From Thermodesulfobacteriota bacterium (GTDB taxonomy: Bacteria; Desulfobacterota; WTBG01; CAIYCZ01; CAIRTM01): a stretch of 64,000 nt of DNA. The stretch spans positions 2,886 to 66,885 of the forward strand of contig JAOAHH010000052.1 of assembly GCA_026415325.1 (NCBI GenBank). The letters run 5' to 3'. The notes under the pieces are model-generated. The model saw only the letters and a list, made by a program, of their open reading frames with translations. It made no database searches and was not told the origin of the DNA. The position numbers and the translations under genes were made by a program. How positions within the stretch are numbered: the first letter of the stretch is position 1; each line of letters starts with the position of its first letter. Positions 5,410-28,173 of the stretch are shown here, piece after piece.

Positions 5410-5766
5410 TCACGCCTTTTTCCGGGTAGCGAGTTCCCGGTCGATTTTGTCTGCGTTTGGGGCGTTTAGTTGTACGATTCGTTTGAGGTGATAAAAAGCA
5501 TCTTCATCCATGGCGGTAAAATGAAGGGCCGCTTCGGTGGCAGAGGCGCGCACAATCGTTGCCGAAACATGGAAGCGAATACCGGCAGCAAGCACAAACT
5601 CGACGGTGCATACAGAATCCGCGGCAAACAGCGCATGCCCGGAACAGCGCATGCCTCGCATGCTAACATTATGTGTGGTAACCGGGATTTTTTTCCGTTT
5701 TATGCGTATCCACACATCAAATGTAACCGGAACCCGAGTGTGGCGTCTCCGTTCGCGTGCCATCAT
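5410..5766 (-). CDS. stand-alone PilZ-domain protein (putative c-di-GMP receptor), 119 aa
   Basis: RRRHTR ... NVSMRGMR matches the PilZ RxxxR / (D/N)xSxxG signature. Start set to the internal ATG at 5766 with a GGGAGG Shine-Dalgarno 5 nt upstream. Upstream part of the ORF-track call is T-rich non-coding sequence. Confidence 0.7.
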   Translation of the reverse strand: MMARERRRHTRVPVTFDVWIRIKRKKIPVTTHNVSMRGMRCSGHALFAADSVCTVEFVLAAGIRFHVSATIVRASATEAALHFTAMDEDAFYHLKRIVQLNAPNADKIDRELATRKKA

Positions 5767-5963
5767 GGCCTCCCGTATGCACTGATATACGCTCTGCAAG
5801 GTGATATTTTCGGTTTGATGTTCTCCGAACAGTAAACAAAGTAGCTCTGTTGTTTTTTTCGTTCGCTGCTCACGGTTTATTTTTTTATCCCTTATGCTTC
5901 GCGAGACATGCTTCCCATCGGCTTTTGGACAACCTGAAACGGTTTTTTTCAAACAATAGCCAA

Positions 5964-23025: not shown

Positions 23026-24348
23026 TTACTGTACCACTCTTTTTACAAGACAGTCAATGCTTCCGCGTGACAAGGTTATCCTGACCATATCGCCTGGCTG
23101 GAGAACATCAGAGGAGCGGACAATCGTCATCGACGGCAACAGCCGCGTGATACTGAACCCGCGGTCAAGAATTGCAGCGGGGCTTAGGGCACTGAGCCGT
23201 CCCGCTACCTGCGCAACATGGTTTGCCCGTGCCAGCAGGAATGTTCGGATGGCATTGCGGAGGCGGTGCATGGTGTGCGAAAGAGTGGCGATCTCTGCCT
23301 GACAGATACGGTGCGGTGACCGTGAGCGGAGAATGCGTTGCAGGGCGGTCAGTCGGACGTGATCGCTGAGCACGACATGCCGGAGCGCGCGGGAGAGTCG
23401 AGCAGCGAGCTCATCCTGTCTGATGAGCAGGGTGGCAAGGTTTTGAGGCCATCGTGAGAGGACGCGGATATGATAACAGATGAGATCCCGTTGCCGAGCG
23501 ATGTGCCGATTGATTGCAGTGTGCATCCGATTGTCCAGCATCCCGATCAGCGAAAAAAGCTCTTTTTTGTCACGCACAACCAGTTCGGCTGCAGCAGAAG
23601 GGGTCGGCGCACGCAGATCGGCAACAAAATCGGCAATGGTCACGTCGGTTTCATGACCGATCGCCGAAATGACCGGCAGCGTTGATGCAGCGATCGCCCG
23701 AGCGACCTTTTCAGTATTAAAGGGCTGAAGATCTTCAAGCGAGCCGCCGCCGCGGGCAAGGATAATCACATCGGCGCAGCGCAGACGATTCACTGTTTCT
23801 ATTGCGTCAACAATCTCATCGGGAGCCTCTGCGCCTTGGACCCGTACCGGTACGACAAGAATCGCGACCGTATTACAGCGGCGCTGCACGATGCGGATAA
23901 TATCATGCACAACGGCACCGGTCGGGGAACTGATGACAGCGATTTTTGCAGGCAACATCGGCAGGGGCTTTTTTCGTGCAGCGTCAAACAGCCCTTCCTG
24001 TGCAAGTTTGTGCTTTAATTGTTCAAAGGCGCGCTGCAAGGCACCGATACCGTGTGGCTCGAGCGACGAAACGATCATCTGATATTCGCCGCGGGGTTCA
24101 TATACGCTGATGCTCCCGCGGCAGAGCACATGCATCCCCTCTTCAGGAGCCATGAGCAGCGCTCTACTTTGCAAGCGGAACAGCACCGCTCTGATCTGTG
24201 AGGCATTGTCTTTCAATGTGAAGTAGCAGTGGCCCGAAGCCGGTATGCGTACGTTTGATATTTCGCCCTCAACCCAGATGTCAGGATACAAGGGTTCCAG
24301 TGATTGCCTGATGTGACGGTTTAGCTCTGAAACAGTAAATACCATCAT
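23026..24348 (-). CDS. xseA: exodeoxyribonuclease VII large subunit
   Basis: OB-fold N-terminus (VSELNRHIRQSLE...VWVEGEISN) and catalytic core. Start set to the internal ATG at 24348. Confidence 0.9.
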   Translation of the reverse strand: MMVFTVSELNRHIRQSLEPLYPDIWVEGEISNVRIPASGHCYFTLKDNASQIRAVLFRLQSRALLMAPEEGMHVLCRGSISVYEPRGEYQMIVSSLEPHGIGALQRAFEQLKHKLAQEGLFDAARKKPLPMLPAKIAVISSPTGAVVHDIIRIVQRRCNTVAILVVPVRVQGAEAPDEIVDAIETVNRLRCADVIILARGGGSLEDLQPFNTEKVARAIAASTLPVISAIGHETDVTIADFVADLRAPTPSAAAELVVRDKKELFSLIGMLDNRMHTAINRHIARQRDLICYHIRVLSRWPQNLATLLIRQDELAARLSRALRHVVLSDHVRLTALQRILRSRSPHRICQAEIATLSHTMHRLRNAIRTFLLARANHVAQVAGRLSALSPAAILDRGFSITRLLPSMTIVRSSDVLQPGDMVRITLSRGSIDCLVKRVVQ

Positions 24349-24476
24349 GTGCAGCCTCACAACTCGTAATACACGTTGCTCGGAGCGTAGCATAGACCCG
24401 GACATCAGTTCAAACAAAAATTAAGGACATCATCGTTCCGGTATGGAATGCTGTGCGGGCACACCCCAGATGAGTA

Positions 24477-24504
24477 CTTGACAAACCATGAATTCATTCT
24501 ATAT
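24477..24504 (+). promoter_or_regulatory. near-consensus orphan sigma-70 promoter (TTGACA-16 nt-TATATT), no protein gene downstream for ~550 nt
   Basis: TTGACA at 24477-24482 and TATATT at 24499-24504, read directly. Confidence 0.5.
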
Positions 24505-24511
24505 TTGAAAC

Positions 24512-24660
24512 CGGAAGGAGGTGGATAACAGCTCAATAGAATTTGAGCAGGGCAAAAGGTAGTACGGGGAACCCCAGAGAAAACGATTGATATACCCAAG
24601 CAGGGAATAACAGAGGAAACTTTATAAAGCATTTTTTTGATAATCCACCTCCTTCCTTTT
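24512..24660 (+). ncRNA. candidate ~150-nt structured small RNA or leader-like element
   Basis: Predicted TSS coincides with the 5' arm GGAAGGAGGTGGAT (24512-24525). That arm is perfectly complementary to ATCCACCTCCTTCC (24642-24655), which is followed by TTTTT. Internal hairpins GCTCAA-TAGAAT-TTGAGC and GGGGAACCCC. No Rfam-type identity could be assigned by eye. Confidence 0.3.
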
Positions 24661-24837
24661 TGATGTGAAAATATTATTAATGTCTGGGATGTGCGAGAGC
24701 CGTCAGAAAGGGCAAAATCCATCATAATAAGGCATAAGCTCTTTGGTCACTGCGACCCGTGGTAGAGCTAAGGTCGTGCAGGCCTCTTTAATAGTAAGGG
24801 TTTTTTGCCATATGACGGATCGGCATTCCGGATCTTA

Positions 24838-24877
24838 CAAAAGCCCTTTAAGGATGCCCTTAAGGGGCTTTTGCTTT
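24838..24877. terminator. bidirectional rho-independent terminator (AAAAGCCCTTTAAGG-ATGC-CCTTAAGGGGCTTTT, flanked by A-run and T-run)
   Basis: 14/15-bp stem with A4 upstream and TTTTGCTTTT downstream. Confidence 0.6.
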
Positions 24878-25056
24878 TCACCACACCCCTCCATTATCGG
24901 ATCGCCGGTTTAGCACTCTGTGGTTGAATTTTTTAGTGCCACACCGTATGATGCAACAACAATAACCACGCCACCAGACGTAGCCATTGCGTATCCCCAT
25001 TATGTTATGTAATGTGGCTGTGGAAGAGTGTAGGCTGATCGATTTCCATTGGGCTC

Positions 25057-28000
25057 ATGGACGCTACGGATAAACGCTCACCGATGTGGATTAAACTGCT
25101 TGGCTGGTATGTGGCATGTATGCGACTTTTGTTGTGGGTCACGCTGGTCGGGCTGGTTGCCTATGAATTGAAGACATCGCGGATCCAAGCAGCGTTTTTC
25201 TCACACCTTGCGCCCCATCTTACGTTCTGGGTTGGCCCGGGGGCTAGCACGGCGGTGCGGTTTCCTGCAGCCGGTCCCTCTGATGAGCGGCGCGGTTATG
25301 TGCATATTCCCCGCATGGTGCGATCGTTGCAAGAACAGGGATATGCAGTTGCAGCGCAGGCACGGTTTTCTCCATTACTTATCAACGTGACGGATGCAGG
25401 CCTGTTTACCCCGTATCATGAAAAAGATCAGGCTGGCCTCCAGCTCTTTGACCGACACGGACGGAATATTTTCAGTTTCATGTGCCCGTCCCGAATCTAT
25501 CCTTCATTTGAAGCAATTCCCTCTACACTGGTCAAATCACTGTTGTTTATCGAGAATCGAGAACTGCTCGATTTTCGGTATCCCTATCGCAATCCTGCAA
25601 TCGACTGGCGACGGCTTGCCAATGCAGCGATCCACCATCTGCTCATAAATGGCAACGGCAGGGGGCCGGGCGGCAGCACACTTGCGACGCAGATCGAAAA
25701 GTTTCGGCACTCGCCGGAAGGGCGCACCAGCAGCGTGAGCGAAAAATTTTTGCAAATGGGATCCGCCACGCTTCGCGCCTATCTTGATGGTCCCGTGACC
25801 CTTGACAGTCAGTGTCGTATTATCCGGGAATATGTCAACACAATACCGCTTGGCGCATTTCCTGGTTACGGTGAAATCATTGGTCTGGGTGACGGATTGT
25901 GGGCATGGTACAGCGCTGATTTCGACGCCGTCAATCGTTATCTCTCATGCCGGCTTCACGAACATAACGATCCCCGACGGAATGCTTGGGGTCTGGCGTT
26001 TAAACAGGTACTCAGCCTGTTTATCGCACAGCGCCGTCCGAAGAGTTACCTTCGTGACAATCTTGAAGCGCTTGAGTCACGCACGGAACAGTATCTCGGA
26101 CTGCTTGAGCGGGAAGGTATTATCAGTACCGCAGAATATGATGCAGCACTTCGGGCACGGTTGGAGTTGCGGCGTAGCATCCCACGTCAGTATGAGGGAT
26201 CGTTTCTTGAACGCAAGACCGCCTATACCCTCAGATCGCGGCTGCTCTCTTTGCTCGACATACCGCAGTTCTACGTGCTTGATCGGTGTGATATAGCGGC
26301 AACCAGCAGCATCGATGCAGGGGCACAAGAAGATATCACGTGGTTTCTCCATCAGCTGAAAAACCCATCGATTGCACGGGATAGCGGGTTGTATGGCGAG
26401 CACATGCTGCAGGAGCAGGATCCCAACAATATTGTTTATAGTTGCACCCTCTATGAACGCACCGATACCGGCAACATGCTTCGTATCCAGACTGACAATT
26501 ACGAACAACCGCTCAATATCAATGAAAGCATCAAGCTGGAGCTCGGCTCCACCGCAAAGTTGCGCACCCTCATTACCTATCTGGAAATTATAACAGAACT
26601 GTATCGGAGCTATGTCGGCAGAGATTCCGATGAACTCATGGCGCTTGCCGGCGATGATGTTGATGATCTCACACGCTGGGCAACAACGTGGCTCGCGCGC
26701 GCCGGGCAGGTTCCGCTTAGCACGATGCTCGATGCAGCGCTTGACCGCATGTATTCAGCACATCCTGGCGAGTCATTTTTCACCGGAGGGGGGCTGCACC
26801 GGTTTGAAAATTTCAACCCGCACGACGATAACCGGACGATGACGGTACGCGAAGCCTTTCATAAATCGGTCAATTTGGTATTCATCAGGATTATGCGAGA
26901 CATTGTTCGGTACTATATCGTGCAACGACATGCGTCACTGCATGGGCTCCGCAAAGACCACCAGATTTCTGAGCGTCGCGACTATCTGGTTCGGTTTGCC
27001 GAGCAGGAAGGGAAAAAATATCTGACACGGTTTTATCAGAAATACCGTTCGCTGCCGACGATGGCGGCACTGCAGGCGCTCGTGAGCACCATACAACCTT
27101 CGCCGATCCGGCTTGCCGTCATCTTCAGGTCGGTTTTACCGGAAGCAGATATGCAGAGGTTTGCCGCATTTGTACGAGACAATCTTCCGCAATCAGAGTT
27201 GTCGGAACAAACGCTTGCAACGCTGTACCGACGCTATACCATCGATGCCTATTCATTGGTTGATCGCGCGTATCTCGCACGGGTGCATCCCTTGGAGCTC
27301 TGGACAGTCGCCTATCTGCACCGCTCTCCCCAGGCAACGCTTAGCGATATCATCCGGGACAGCACAGAAGAGCGACAGGCAGTCTACCAGTGGCTTTTTA
27401 AAACCCGCAACAAAGAAGCTCAGGATGTGCGCATCCAGATTGTGATGGAAAACGAGGCATTTCAGGAGATTCACCGAAGCTGGAAACGTCTTGGCTATCC
27501 GTTTGATTCCCTTGTGCCCTCATACGCAACCGCTATCGGCAGTTCGGCAGACCGGCCTGCCGCACTTGCAGAACTTGTCGGTATCATCCTGAATGACGGT
27601 GTTCTGCTCCCTACGTTGAGTATGCAACAGATTCATATTGCGCCGCACACACCGTATGAAACGCTGGTGGTGCCGGCACCCCGGCATGGCGAGCAGGTGC
27701 TGGTACCTGAAATTGCCCGAGCCGTACGGCGCGAGCTTCAAGGTGTTGTCCAGCGGGGAACGGCAACGAAACTGCGGGGAGTGTTTTGCGCACCGGACGG
27801 CACGCCCTACCCAATTGGTGGCAAGACCGGCACTGGTGATAACCGCTATGATGTGTATAACAGTGAAGGAGTGCTCGTAAAATCACGCGTTGTCAACCGG
27901 ACTGCGACATTTGTTTTTTTCATCGGCGATCGTTTTTTTGGAACGATAACCGCATATGTTGAAGGCCCTGATGCAGCGCGCTACCGCTTCACCAGCTCTT

Positions 28001-28173
28001 TGCCGGTGCAGGTGTTAAAAGCCATGGCGCCAAAGCTGATGCCATTGCTGTCGGGCAGCACGATCACCTCCTCCGACGATTACGATGTACGTACAGCGGC
28101 TCCACGCAGTTTGCCTTCGGAGATGAACGATTCGATCAACAGCAGGAGGAGCGCGGCTGCAACAAACCACTGA
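25057..28173 (+). CDS. class A penicillin-binding protein (GT51 transglycosylase + transpeptidase), atypically long (1038 aa)
   Basis: N-terminal TM. GT51 motifs (FIENRELLDFRY, GGSTLATQIEKF, RIIREYVNTIPLG). Transpeptidase SxxK (GSTAKL) and KTGT motifs. Long low-similarity linker between the two domains. Confidence 0.8.
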   Translation: MDATDKRSPMWIKLLGWYVACMRLLLWVTLVGLVAYELKTSRIQAAFFSHLAPHLTFWVGPGASTAVRFPAAGPSDERRGYVHIPRMVRSLQEQGYAVAAQARFSPLLINVTDAGLFTPYHEKDQAGLQLFDRHGRNIFSFMCPSRIYPSFEAIPSTLVKSLLFIENRELLDFRYPYRNPAIDWRRLANAAIHHLLINGNGRGPGGSTLATQIEKFRHSPEGRTSSVSEKFLQMGSATLRAYLDGPVTLDSQCRIIREYVNTIPLGAFPGYGEIIGLGDGLWAWYSADFDAVNRYLSCRLHEHNDPRRNAWGLAFKQVLSLFIAQRRPKSYLRDNLEALESRTEQYLGLLEREGIISTAEYDAALRARLELRRSIPRQYEGSFLERKTAYTLRSRLLSLLDIPQFYVLDRCDIAATSSIDAGAQEDITWFLHQLKNPSIARDSGLYGEHMLQEQDPNNIVYSCTLYERTDTGNMLRIQTDNYEQPLNINESIKLELGSTAKLRTLITYLEIITELYRSYVGRDSDELMALAGDDVDDLTRWATTWLARAGQVPLSTMLDAALDRMYSAHPGESFFTGGGLHRFENFNPHDDNRTMTVREAFHKSVNLVFIRIMRDIVRYYIVQRHASLHGLRKDHQISERRDYLVRFAEQEGKKYLTRFYQKYRSLPTMAALQALVSTIQPSPIRLAVIFRSVLPEADMQRFAAFVRDNLPQSELSEQTLATLYRRYTIDAYSLVDRAYLARVHPLELWTVAYLHRSPQATLSDIIRDSTEERQAVYQWLFKTRNKEAQDVRIQIVMENEAFQEIHRSWKRLGYPFDSLVPSYATAIGSSADRPAALAELVGIILNDGVLLPTLSMQQIHIAPHTPYETLVVPAPRHGEQVLVPEIARAVRRELQGVVQRGTATKLRGVFCAPDGTPYPIGGKTGTGDNRYDVYNSEGVLVKSRVVNRTATFVFFIGDRFFGTITAYVEGPDAARYRFTSSLPVQVLKAMAPKLMPLLSGSTITSSDDYDVRTAAPRSLPSEMNDSINSRRSAAATNH

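Follow-up and report, generated by a model that had tools for sequence, protein, structure and literature searches.

The 708-nucleotide (nt) gap between xseA and a penicillin-binding protein (PBP)-like gene on contig JAOAHH010000052.1 of a Thermodesulfobacteriota bacterium holds a ~150-nt non-coding RNA element whose two ends pair with each other into a long closing helix. We refer to this element as the clamp RNA, and to the whole 64-kb stretch of DNA analysed here (64,000 nt) as the window. Here we report that the clamp RNA lies directly upstream of a probable 6S-like RNA, that the two are conserved together at the orthologous position in related bacteria, and that the clamp RNA also occurs by itself in a second lineage. 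On the basis of this architecture we propose, with a probability of roughly 0.55, that the clamp RNA is a conserved RNA co-transcribed with the 6S-like RNA from one promoter. The 5′ strand of the closing helix resembles a Shine–Dalgarno (SD) sequence and is paired to an anti-SD-like 3′ strand, and we advance tentatively, with more doubt than conviction, the further idea that the clamp RNA is a self-masked SD mimic.

Organization and conservation of the unit

The unit is headed by a sigma-70-type promoter, TTGACA-16-TATATT (positions 24478–24505, plus strand), which matches the consensus at 11 of 12 positions and is the best promoter-like site of the region. All seven syntenic loci (the window and six others) share the same two hexamers, the same 16-nt spacer and the same 7-nt distance to G24513. 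A preliminary description of this DNA had recognized a near-consensus promoter with a non-coding RNA element starting at it; we find all the sequence features that it listed, with every coordinate shifted by +1 relative to that description. It had also taken the promoter for an orphan, which it is not, because a 6S-like RNA with no recognizable promoter of its own begins 15–25 nt past the 3′ arm of the clamp RNA in seven of the seven syntenic loci. The promoter most likely drives the whole clamp RNA–6S-like RNA unit, to judge by this arrangement.

The promoter, the clamp RNA and the 6S-like RNA are conserved together in six other loci (L029, L032, L033, L035, L037 and L064), all from uncultured members of a Thermodesulfobacteriota clade. 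Five of them were found through XseA-encoding contigs and L064 through a pattern scan of metagenomes; XseA identity to the window is 58–67% in the five loci scored. The XseA relatives keep the gene order PBP-like gene, large gap, xseA-xseB-ispA-dxs, and the units share one layout: TTGACA-16-TATATT, 7 nt, GGAAGGAGGTGGA, a GCTCAA-N6-TTGAGC hairpin, an A-rich stretch, a pyrimidine 3′ arm, a spacer, the 6S-like RNA and a terminator. The spacer between the two RNAs is 15–25 nt long and U/A-rich in all seven loci. The presence of the unit at the orthologous position in six relatives bears out the conservation in related genomes to which the preliminary description had looked for support. Three other xseA loci (L039, L040 and L081) have neither the clamp RNA nor the 6S-like RNA, and both RNAs are likewise missing from the xseA loci of P0014, P0020 and P0007. 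A scan of a species-representative genome collection with XseA returned distant relatives only (at most 57% identity on the best segment), none of them with the element.

Architecture of the clamp RNA

In the window, the clamp RNA begins 7 nt past the −10 hexamer with the 5′ arm GGAAGGAGGTGGAT (24513–24526; this and all following parts on the plus strand), a polypurine, SD-like strand with three GGA motifs that forms the predicted 5′ end of the transcript. The P2 hairpin follows (24531–24548), with the stem strands GCTCAA and TTGAGC and the loop TAGAAT, and then a variable, A-rich middle of 94 nt (24549–24642) that is poorly alignable even among syntenic relatives. The element ends with the 3′ arm ATCCACCTCCTTCC (24643–24656), a polypyrimidine, anti-SD-like strand that in the window is the perfect complement of the 5′ arm. 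Over its length, the clamp element is 37% A. Beyond it lies a U/A-rich, unstructured spacer (24657–24681; folding energy −2 kcal/mol), which consists of T5 (24657–24661) and then GATGTGAAAATATTATTAAT.

The 150-nt RNA including the closing helix has a folding energy of −46.9 kcal/mol (z = −4.9); none of 200 shuffled sequences folded as well. A helix of SD-like and anti-SD-like arms that closes the two ends of a ~150-nt transcript, as first described from the sequence, is thus recovered by folding. Within the middle section of the window RNA, the fold offers the 5′ strand no competing partner. When the clamp RNA was searched against Rfam 15, no match reached the gathering thresholds, and the sole overlapping hit was at chance level (snoZ105, E = 9.4). 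The preliminary description could not match the sequence by eye to 6S, SRP RNA, tmRNA, RNase P or a known riboswitch; as regards 6S RNA, this holds for the ~150-nt element but fails for the region, where a 6S-like RNA (24678–24838) lies directly downstream. A literature search for a 12-mer and a 13-mer returned eukaryotic primer sequences only.

A family of clamp RNAs

The clamp RNA family comprises 11 distinct sequences: the window, the six 6S-linked relatives and four stand-alone copies (group 2), of which L045, L054 and L065 came from the metagenome scan and the more divergent L082 was reached through neighbouring proteins. The stand-alone copies occur in a second lineage and have a YfcE-like phosphoesterase gene on one side and downstream genes that vary on the other. 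They have the same 5′ strand, the same hairpin and the same kind of 3′ strand, around a middle that is longer and more structured; across the family, members are 144–195 nt long. A search with a local 6S model detected no 6S-like RNA in the few kilobases around L045, L054 and L065, and the group-2 loci gave no Rfam match to the clamp RNA. In each stand-alone copy, a GC-rich hairpin followed by 6–8 U lies 10–21 nt past the 3′ strand. When only the 6S-linked copies were used to build a profile, it matched each stand-alone copy from end to end, with E = 0.004 for L082 and 1e-10 to 1e-12 for the other three; it returned a single hit in the window and in every locus. Because in a second lineage the clamp RNA also occurs by itself and is followed by terminators of its own, we assign it to a new RNA family, without an Rfam match; the novel small RNA (sRNA) first suspected at this single locus is borne out as one member of a conserved non-coding family.

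Across the 11 sequences, hardly any change occurs in the 5′ strand, GGAAGGAGG(U)GGA, or in the hairpin next to it, and the middle varies freely. The first 13 nt of the 5′ strand, GGAAGGAGGUGGA, are invariant in 10 of the 11, L082 having GGAAGGAGGCAGGA instead, and among the ten members other than L082 all variation of the helix falls on the 3′ strand. There, the terminal CCUCCUUCC of the 3′ arm is kept in nine of 11 sequences, with one substitution each in L045 (C opposite A7, an A·C mismatch) and L064 (U opposite G6, a G·U pair). Opposite U10, the same ten members have A (three), U (six) or no base (one). The usual helix consists of 9 base pairs (bp), a U·U mismatch or bulge and 3 bp; a perfect 14-bp helix is found in the window only. 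The identity of the 3′ arm with the anti-SD core, on which the preliminary description had remarked, is not conserved either, the arm being CCACCCCC in L045 and CCACCUUC in L064.

Both the closing helix and P2 are part of the minimum-energy fold in 11 of 11 members. The outer 9 bp of the closing helix have a pairing probability of 0.98 in nine members and 0.81 in L065, and are interrupted by the A·C mismatch in L045. The P2 stem is invariant in ten sequences, whereas L082 has GCUCAA/UUGGGC with a U·G wobble; in its closing helix, L082 has an A·U pair and a bulged C in place of the usual U·U mismatch. These changes are compatible with RNA pairing, and because the U·G wobble keeps the RNA helix while it breaks the palindrome, P2 fits an RNA helix rather than a DNA palindrome. 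In the middle section of the 6S-linked members, RNAalifold finds one weak 3-bp hairpin in common.

A few internal features are particular to one group. Between internal positions ~50 and 135, all four group-2 sequences have invariant ACUCACC, a CCACAG/CUGUGG hairpin, GRUCCACCAA and (U)AAGGAGGUGAGUU, and the group-2 RNAs contain additional anti-SD-like stretches. The RNAalifold consensus of group 2 suggested an alternative pairing of GGUGGAC in the 5′ strand with an internal GUCCACC; we rejected this pairing, as it is lost in L082 (GGCAGGAC, GAUCCACC). In the window, the stretch AAAAGGTAGTACGGGGAACCCCAG (24557–24580, plus strand) resembles the helix-45 region of 16S ribosomal RNA (AAGGUAGCCGUAGGGGAACCUGCGG). 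The stretch is kept in none of the ten relatives, so we treat the likeness as chance and dismiss a mimic of helix 45.

The arms can also be viewed as DNA. They lie 116 bp apart and are, among the repeats reported by a window-wide scan, the only perfect inverted repeat of at least 14 nt with distant arms; moreover, P2 is a perfect palindrome in ten of the 11 sequences. The arms could accordingly be terminal inverted repeats of a miniature inverted-repeat transposable element (MITE), as the preliminary description had considered, or of an invertible segment, and GCTCAA-N6-TTGAGC could be the operator of a transcription factor. Several findings make any such role very improbable. The element is present once in the 64-kb window and once in each locus, and the 14-mer arm occurs at only two sites in the window, even with 2 mismatches allowed (0.39 expected by chance), which leaves no further copies of the arms. 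No target-site duplication is present (the flanks are AAACC and TTTTT), the orientation is the same in all 11 members, no recombinase or transposase gene lies beside the element, and collections of plasmids, phages and viral contigs gave no matches. The P2 palindrome is broken by the U·G wobble of L082. Because the element keeps its orthologous position across relatives (seven lineages) while the middles have diverged, vertical descent is indicated, and we rejected both the MITE and the invertible segment.

The 6S-like RNA

Beginning 25 nt after the 3′ arm in the window, positions 24682–24833 (plus strand) encode a probable 6S-like RNA (ssrS). The Rfam 6S model RF00013 matches 24678–24838 with 38 bits (E = 5.4e-6), the one significant match in a permissive Rfam search of 24250–25150 (901 nt). 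It is also the top hit in two of the three orthologues tested (L035, 31.6 bits, E = 1.4e-4; L037, 37.5 bits, E = 9e-6). The alignments to RF00013 are full-length (model positions 1–187), and 6S is the only significant match. At curated thresholds, Rfam returned two tRNAs only for the whole window, and whole-locus searches missed the 6S-like RNA owing to search-space and filter effects; it was recovered only by searches over small ranges.

The predicted structure agrees with this assignment. For 24682–24833, the minimum-energy fold and the RNAalifold fold both give a 6S shape, with a closing stem, two internal stems (GGGCAAAAUCC with GGGUUUUUUGCC), single strands of 18 and 13 nt, and an apical domain. 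The RNAalifold consensus of the seven orthologues is mainly a long, irregularly paired stem with 44 conserved pairs, 6 compensatory, and a model built from these orthologues scores each of them at 144–165 bits. An intrinsic terminator with a 16-bp hairpin and a U-tract (24838–24879, plus strand; −25.1 kcal/mol, z = −5.7) was found by a terminator scan, and all relatives have an equivalent hairpin behind their 6S-like RNA. Scanning all seven loci, we found no −35/−10 pair placed to start transcription at the 5′ end of the 6S-like RNA.

A canonical 6S RNA in a Nitrospirota metagenome-assembled genome (MAG; locus L008, 1624–1804, plus strand; 103 bits), ~4 kb from xseA, stands in contrast to this promoterless gene: a promoter-like TTGCCA...TATATA lies directly upstream of it, and it has no clamp element.

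The vicinity of the two RNAs raises the question of whether the clamp RNA is itself a second 6S RNA, a diverged paralogue arranged in tandem like ssrSA-ssrSB of the Bacillus cereus group. Co-transcribed tandem 6S genes do exist (PMC7726162), and the clamp RNA is of similar size and has closed ends. Nonetheless, this is hardly plausible: Rfam 6S gives no match to the element at E values up to 10 in the 901-nt search, the local 6S model has no second hit in the window or in the group-2 loci, and the clamp RNAs fold into a closing helix with a multi-branched or open interior rather than into a rod with a central bubble. Since neither 6S model matches the clamp RNA, we rejected the paralogue. An anti-6S or product RNA (pRNA)-like pairing between the two RNAs was likewise rejected, the duplex energies of clamp RNA and 6S-like RNA being no better than those of shuffled sequences in all seven pairs.

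Proposed transcription through the clamp RNA

We propose that transcription would start at about G24513 from the promoter at 24478–24505, and that the first ~145 nt would fold such that the extreme 5′ end (GGAAGGAGGUGGAU) is paired with the 3′ end (AUCCACCUCCUUCC). RNA polymerase would mostly pass the weak U-run and the 25-nt U/A-rich spacer into the 6S-like RNA and stop at the terminator at 24838–24879, and an endonucleolytic cut in the spacer (24657–24681) would then separate the two RNAs. The clamp would bury both ends of the upstream RNA and protect them from end-dependent nucleases; ends that are buried in, or abut, a stable helix are the usual design of long-lived small RNAs.

Related arrangements are known. 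In Bacillus thuringiensis (B. cereus group), ssrSA and ssrSB (6S-1 and 6S-2) are co-transcribed from one promoter, the precursor is proposed to be cut at A/U-rich spacers, and the second gene, ssrSB, shows no promoter activity or start site (PMC7726162). The unit described here likewise has two non-coding RNAs head to tail, one upstream promoter and an A/U-rich spacer, but its upstream RNA is not a 6S RNA and also stands alone in another lineage, and co-transcription is deduced here from sequence only. According to Kim and Lee (2004), as cited in PMC7726162, RNase E and RNase G release Escherichia coli 6S RNA from a long precursor. Our proposal similarly has the 6S RNA mature from a longer transcript with extra 5′ sequence, but here the leader is conserved as a module clamped at its ends, in which the 5′ strand and the hairpin do not vary. 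The leader of E. coli 6S RNA is not known as a conserved structured RNA.

Several points weigh against the co-transcribed clamp RNA as we propose it. The closing helix is conserved but shows no compensatory covariation, and ten of its 14 pairs never vary; covariation thus neither supports nor contradicts the helix, and because no compensatory change occurs, the argument for the pairing is one of complementarity and thermodynamics. The RF00013 scores of the window, L035 and L037 lie below the gathering threshold of 46.4 bits, and a single-locus Rfam search of the L029 orthologue gave no RF00013 hit; for these two reasons we use the name 6S-like and do not certify the RNA as a member of the family. 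A few nucleotides upstream of the 6S-like 5′ end there are AT-rich, −10-like hexamers (TATTAT, TTAAAT and TGTAAT), which may amount to a weak promoter without a −35 element. In the window and in L029, the stable helix is followed by T5–T6, which could terminate a substantial fraction of transcripts. The SD-like strand is ~98% paired in the folded RNA, a point to which we return below. Finally, whereas the sequence shows the anatomy, its conservation, the link to the 6S-like RNA and the lack of an ORF, the start site, the co-transcription by read-through, the processing, the stability and the binding partner of the clamp RNA are inferred.

Two of these points, the T5–T6 directly after the helix in the window and L029 and the −10-like hexamers before the 6S-like RNA, would fit a free-standing sRNA of ~150 nt that ends at the helix and T5, the 6S-like RNA being a separate gene with an unrecognized promoter of its own; in the second lineage, the clamp RNA is indeed an independent gene. 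We consider this account unlikely. None of the seven loci has a −35/−10 pair for the 6S-like RNA, which follows the clamp RNA within 15–25 nt. The U-run is intact in the window and L029 and is broken in L033 (ATTTTGTTG), L035 (ACTTTGTTTTG) and L064 (TTATTTGTGG). Stand-alone copies need a separate, canonical terminator 10–21 nt downstream, so that the clamp itself does not appear to end transcription in these copies. In addition, the helix encloses 116 nt, unlike the short loop of a terminator hairpin, and the terminator scan was silent on it. The T5 is therefore probably not the end of the transcript, and the reading of helix and T5 as a terminator, which the preliminary description had offered, probably does not hold.

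The same helix could instead act as a switch. As the attenuator leader of the 6S-like RNA, the clamp RNA would be bound at its nascent, very strong SD-like end by a 30S subunit or another factor, which would block the helix and allow read-through into the 6S-like RNA; unbound, the helix would form and transcription would stop. 6S synthesis would thereby be tied to how many idle ribosomes are available. This account draws on the U-rich tail directly after the helix in 11 of 11 members, on the almost invariant 5′ strand with its high complementarity to the 16S 3′ tail and its freedom from competing partners in the middle section of the window RNA, and on the consideration that the level of a promoterless 6S-like RNA must depend on passage through the helix and U-run. 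The odds are nevertheless heavily against it, as there is nothing for a stand-alone copy to attenuate: the genes downstream differ, and a real terminator follows each copy. The U-tract is poor in several members, and no alternative, anti-terminator pairing is conserved. Long-range helices, moreover, are not known to serve as intrinsic terminators.

The Shine–Dalgarno-like 5′ strand

The 5′ strand GGAAGGAGGUGG (+1 to +12) can form 9 contiguous Watson–Crick pairs, or 12 with G·U pairs, with the canonical 16S 3′ tail, from which the host's own tail may differ. The match is among the longest of its kind in the window. As a self-masked SD mimic, which we put forward as a tentative addition to the co-transcribed architecture, the clamp would hide this near-complete complement of the 16S tail in its helix. 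The SD-like 5′ end would be exposed only during synthesis, when a 30S subunit or a GGA-binding protein could bind to it and might thereby stabilize or escort the untranslated transcript. The 3′ strand would then lock the SD-like end, so that an abundant non-coding RNA would hold no ribosomes. Because the SD-like strand is ~98% paired in the folded RNA, binding by a ribosome or protein must be co-transcriptional or need opening of the helix.

The precedent for an SD-like sequence of this kind is STAB-SD, a 5′ stabilizer of cry3A mRNA (Agaisse and Lereclus 1996), which, as summarized in a review (PMC4113751), binds the 30S subunit without directing translation. The clamp RNA resembles it in having a strong SD-like sequence (GGAAGGAGG) near the 5′ end that can pair with the 16S 3′ end and lacks a translation start: GGAAGGAGGUGG lies at +1 to +12, and no start codon follows at initiation distance. 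The sequence of STAB-SD itself is GAAAGGAGG. The two differ in that STAB-SD lies in an mRNA leader, is accessible and blocks RNase J1, whereas here the strand belongs to a non-coding RNA and is paired to its 3′ partner.

A strand pair of this type could also control translation of the transcript that carries it. In Staphylococcus aureus icaR, an anti-SD-like pyrimidine motif in the 3′ untranslated region (UTR) pairs with the 5′ SD region and blocks ribosome access (PMC3868564), a precedent for the silencing of an SD-like end by an internal anti-SD that we propose for the mimic; the clamp RNA shares with it a double-stranded segment formed by a 3′-end anti-SD-like motif and a 5′-end SD-like region. 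By this likeness, the clamp RNA might be a small mRNA whose SD is sequestered by its own 3′-end anti-SD, in the manner of icaR or of type I toxin mRNAs. However, icaR has a coding region, and its pairing controls translation and RNase III cleavage, whereas there is no open reading frame (ORF) here. No ATG, GTG or TTG occurs 4–13 nt past the SD-like sequence (GGAGG) in any family member, the P2 hairpin lying there instead, and no ORF downstream of the SD-like sequence is conserved on either strand. The one in-frame candidate, a TTG inside P2 that lies 21 nt downstream, would give dissimilar peptides of 15, 23 and 8 amino acids (aa) in the window, L029 and L032, respectively. A minus-strand ORF of 106 aa has no significant Pfam match (best E = 0.11) and is not conserved, being 11 aa in L029. 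We therefore rejected the small ORF, in agreement with the earlier judgement that no plausible ORF follows the SD, and of all the accounts weighed here the small mRNA is the least credible.

The GGA motifs suggest another partner. The clamp RNA could be a decoy or sponge for a factor that binds GGA or SD sequences, either a CsrA-type protein, as with CsrB and RsmZ, or the anti-SD of the 30S subunit; titration would be its chief task, and its linkage to 6S would reflect co-regulation. With these RNAs it has in common that it is non-coding, has several GGA or SD-like motifs and has a terminator-like 3′ end. There are three GGA motifs in the 5′ strand and 4–6 per member in total, and most members place one or two in loops; in group 1, a small ACCU/AGGU hairpin has GGGAA in its loop. 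Group 2 has a second invariant site, GUA(C/U)A(A/G)GGAGGUGAG, which is a 10-nt complement of the canonical 16S tail (the host's own may differ), and which may resemble the CsrA consensus from systematic evolution of ligands by exponential enrichment (SELEX), RUACARGGAUGU. That the substitutions in the clamp all fall on the 3′ strand suggests that the 5′ strand is read for its sequence. Known Csr sponges such as CsrB and RsmZ expose many GGA motifs in hairpin loops, whereas the clamp RNA has only 4–6, half of them buried in the clamp. With the three GGA of the 5′ strand locked in the helix at a pairing probability of ~0.98, and with GGA barely enriched outside this strand (~3 expected from base composition), we find a sponge decidedly unlikely.

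A bolder proposal joins both RNAs. The clamp RNA would be a mimic of a ribosome-binding site (RBS), engaging the anti-SD of idle 30S subunits as a decoy or as a ribosome-sensing switch for read-through into 6S, and would be fused in one operon to 6S, which imitates the DNA of an open promoter and sequesters RNA polymerase. We regard this as a long shot. The conservation of the 5′ strand may also have other causes, such as a two-tier G-quadruplex or a constraint on the stretch that is transcribed first.

Genomic surroundings

The gap lies between xseA (23026–24348, minus strand; TIGR00237 match, E = 1e-139) and the PBP-like gene (25057–28173, plus strand), which encodes a 1038-aa transglycosylase/PBP-like protein. 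The XseA of the window is identical to MCX8043248.1 from a Desulfobacterota/Thermodesulfobacteriota MAG. In order, the gap contains the region upstream of xseA, the promoter, the clamp RNA, the U/A-rich spacer, the 6S-like RNA, the terminator and a second promoter-like site, and all of its 708 nt are now accounted for.

This second site, TTGAAT-17-TATGAT (24924–24952, plus strand), lies ~105 nt upstream of the PBP-like/transglycosylase gene and is probably its promoter; a block TTGAA(A/T)TTTTT...ATATGATG occupies the same position in L029, L032, L033 and L064. At the other end of the gap, a short conserved motif, CAGTTCAAAC(A/G)AAAAT, is found within 24380–24420 of the window and at equivalent sites in L029, L032 and L033. 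The motif directly precedes the start of xseA on the opposite strand and is probably part of the promoter or 5′ UTR of xseA, divergent from the clamp RNA promoter ~130 bp away.

L035, L037 and L081 have in common a conserved non-coding block of ~280 nt (for example, TTCCACAGCAGGTGTTCACTGCCTGTGGAAAAGACTGTTGAAAC...GAATTCAACAGGATAG), placed between xseA and the clamp RNA on the minus strand in each case (L037, ~760–1040; L035, ~5530–5810; L081, ~2650–2800). It is present in L081 despite the lack of a clamp RNA and 6S-like RNA there, and is absent from the window. The block has no convincing Rfam match, a weak, sub-threshold STnc310 hit (E = 0.058) lying inside it, and may be another RNA or a regulatory region.

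Implications

At the least, the clamp RNA represents a new family of structured RNA, with 11 distinct sequences in two genomic contexts, and the unit a new layout of a 6S locus. In this clade, the 6S-like gene is always preceded by a module outside Rfam, in which an RBS look-alike at the first transcribed base is clamped to the 3′ end of its own RNA. If the SD-like strand contacts ribosomes or a CsrA-type protein, control of translation capacity would be linked to the circuit of 6S RNA and RNA polymerase. Were the clamp RNA and its partner indeed mimics of the RBS and of open promoter DNA, a single promoter would yield decoys for the machineries of translation and transcription alike and so coordinate their shut-down.

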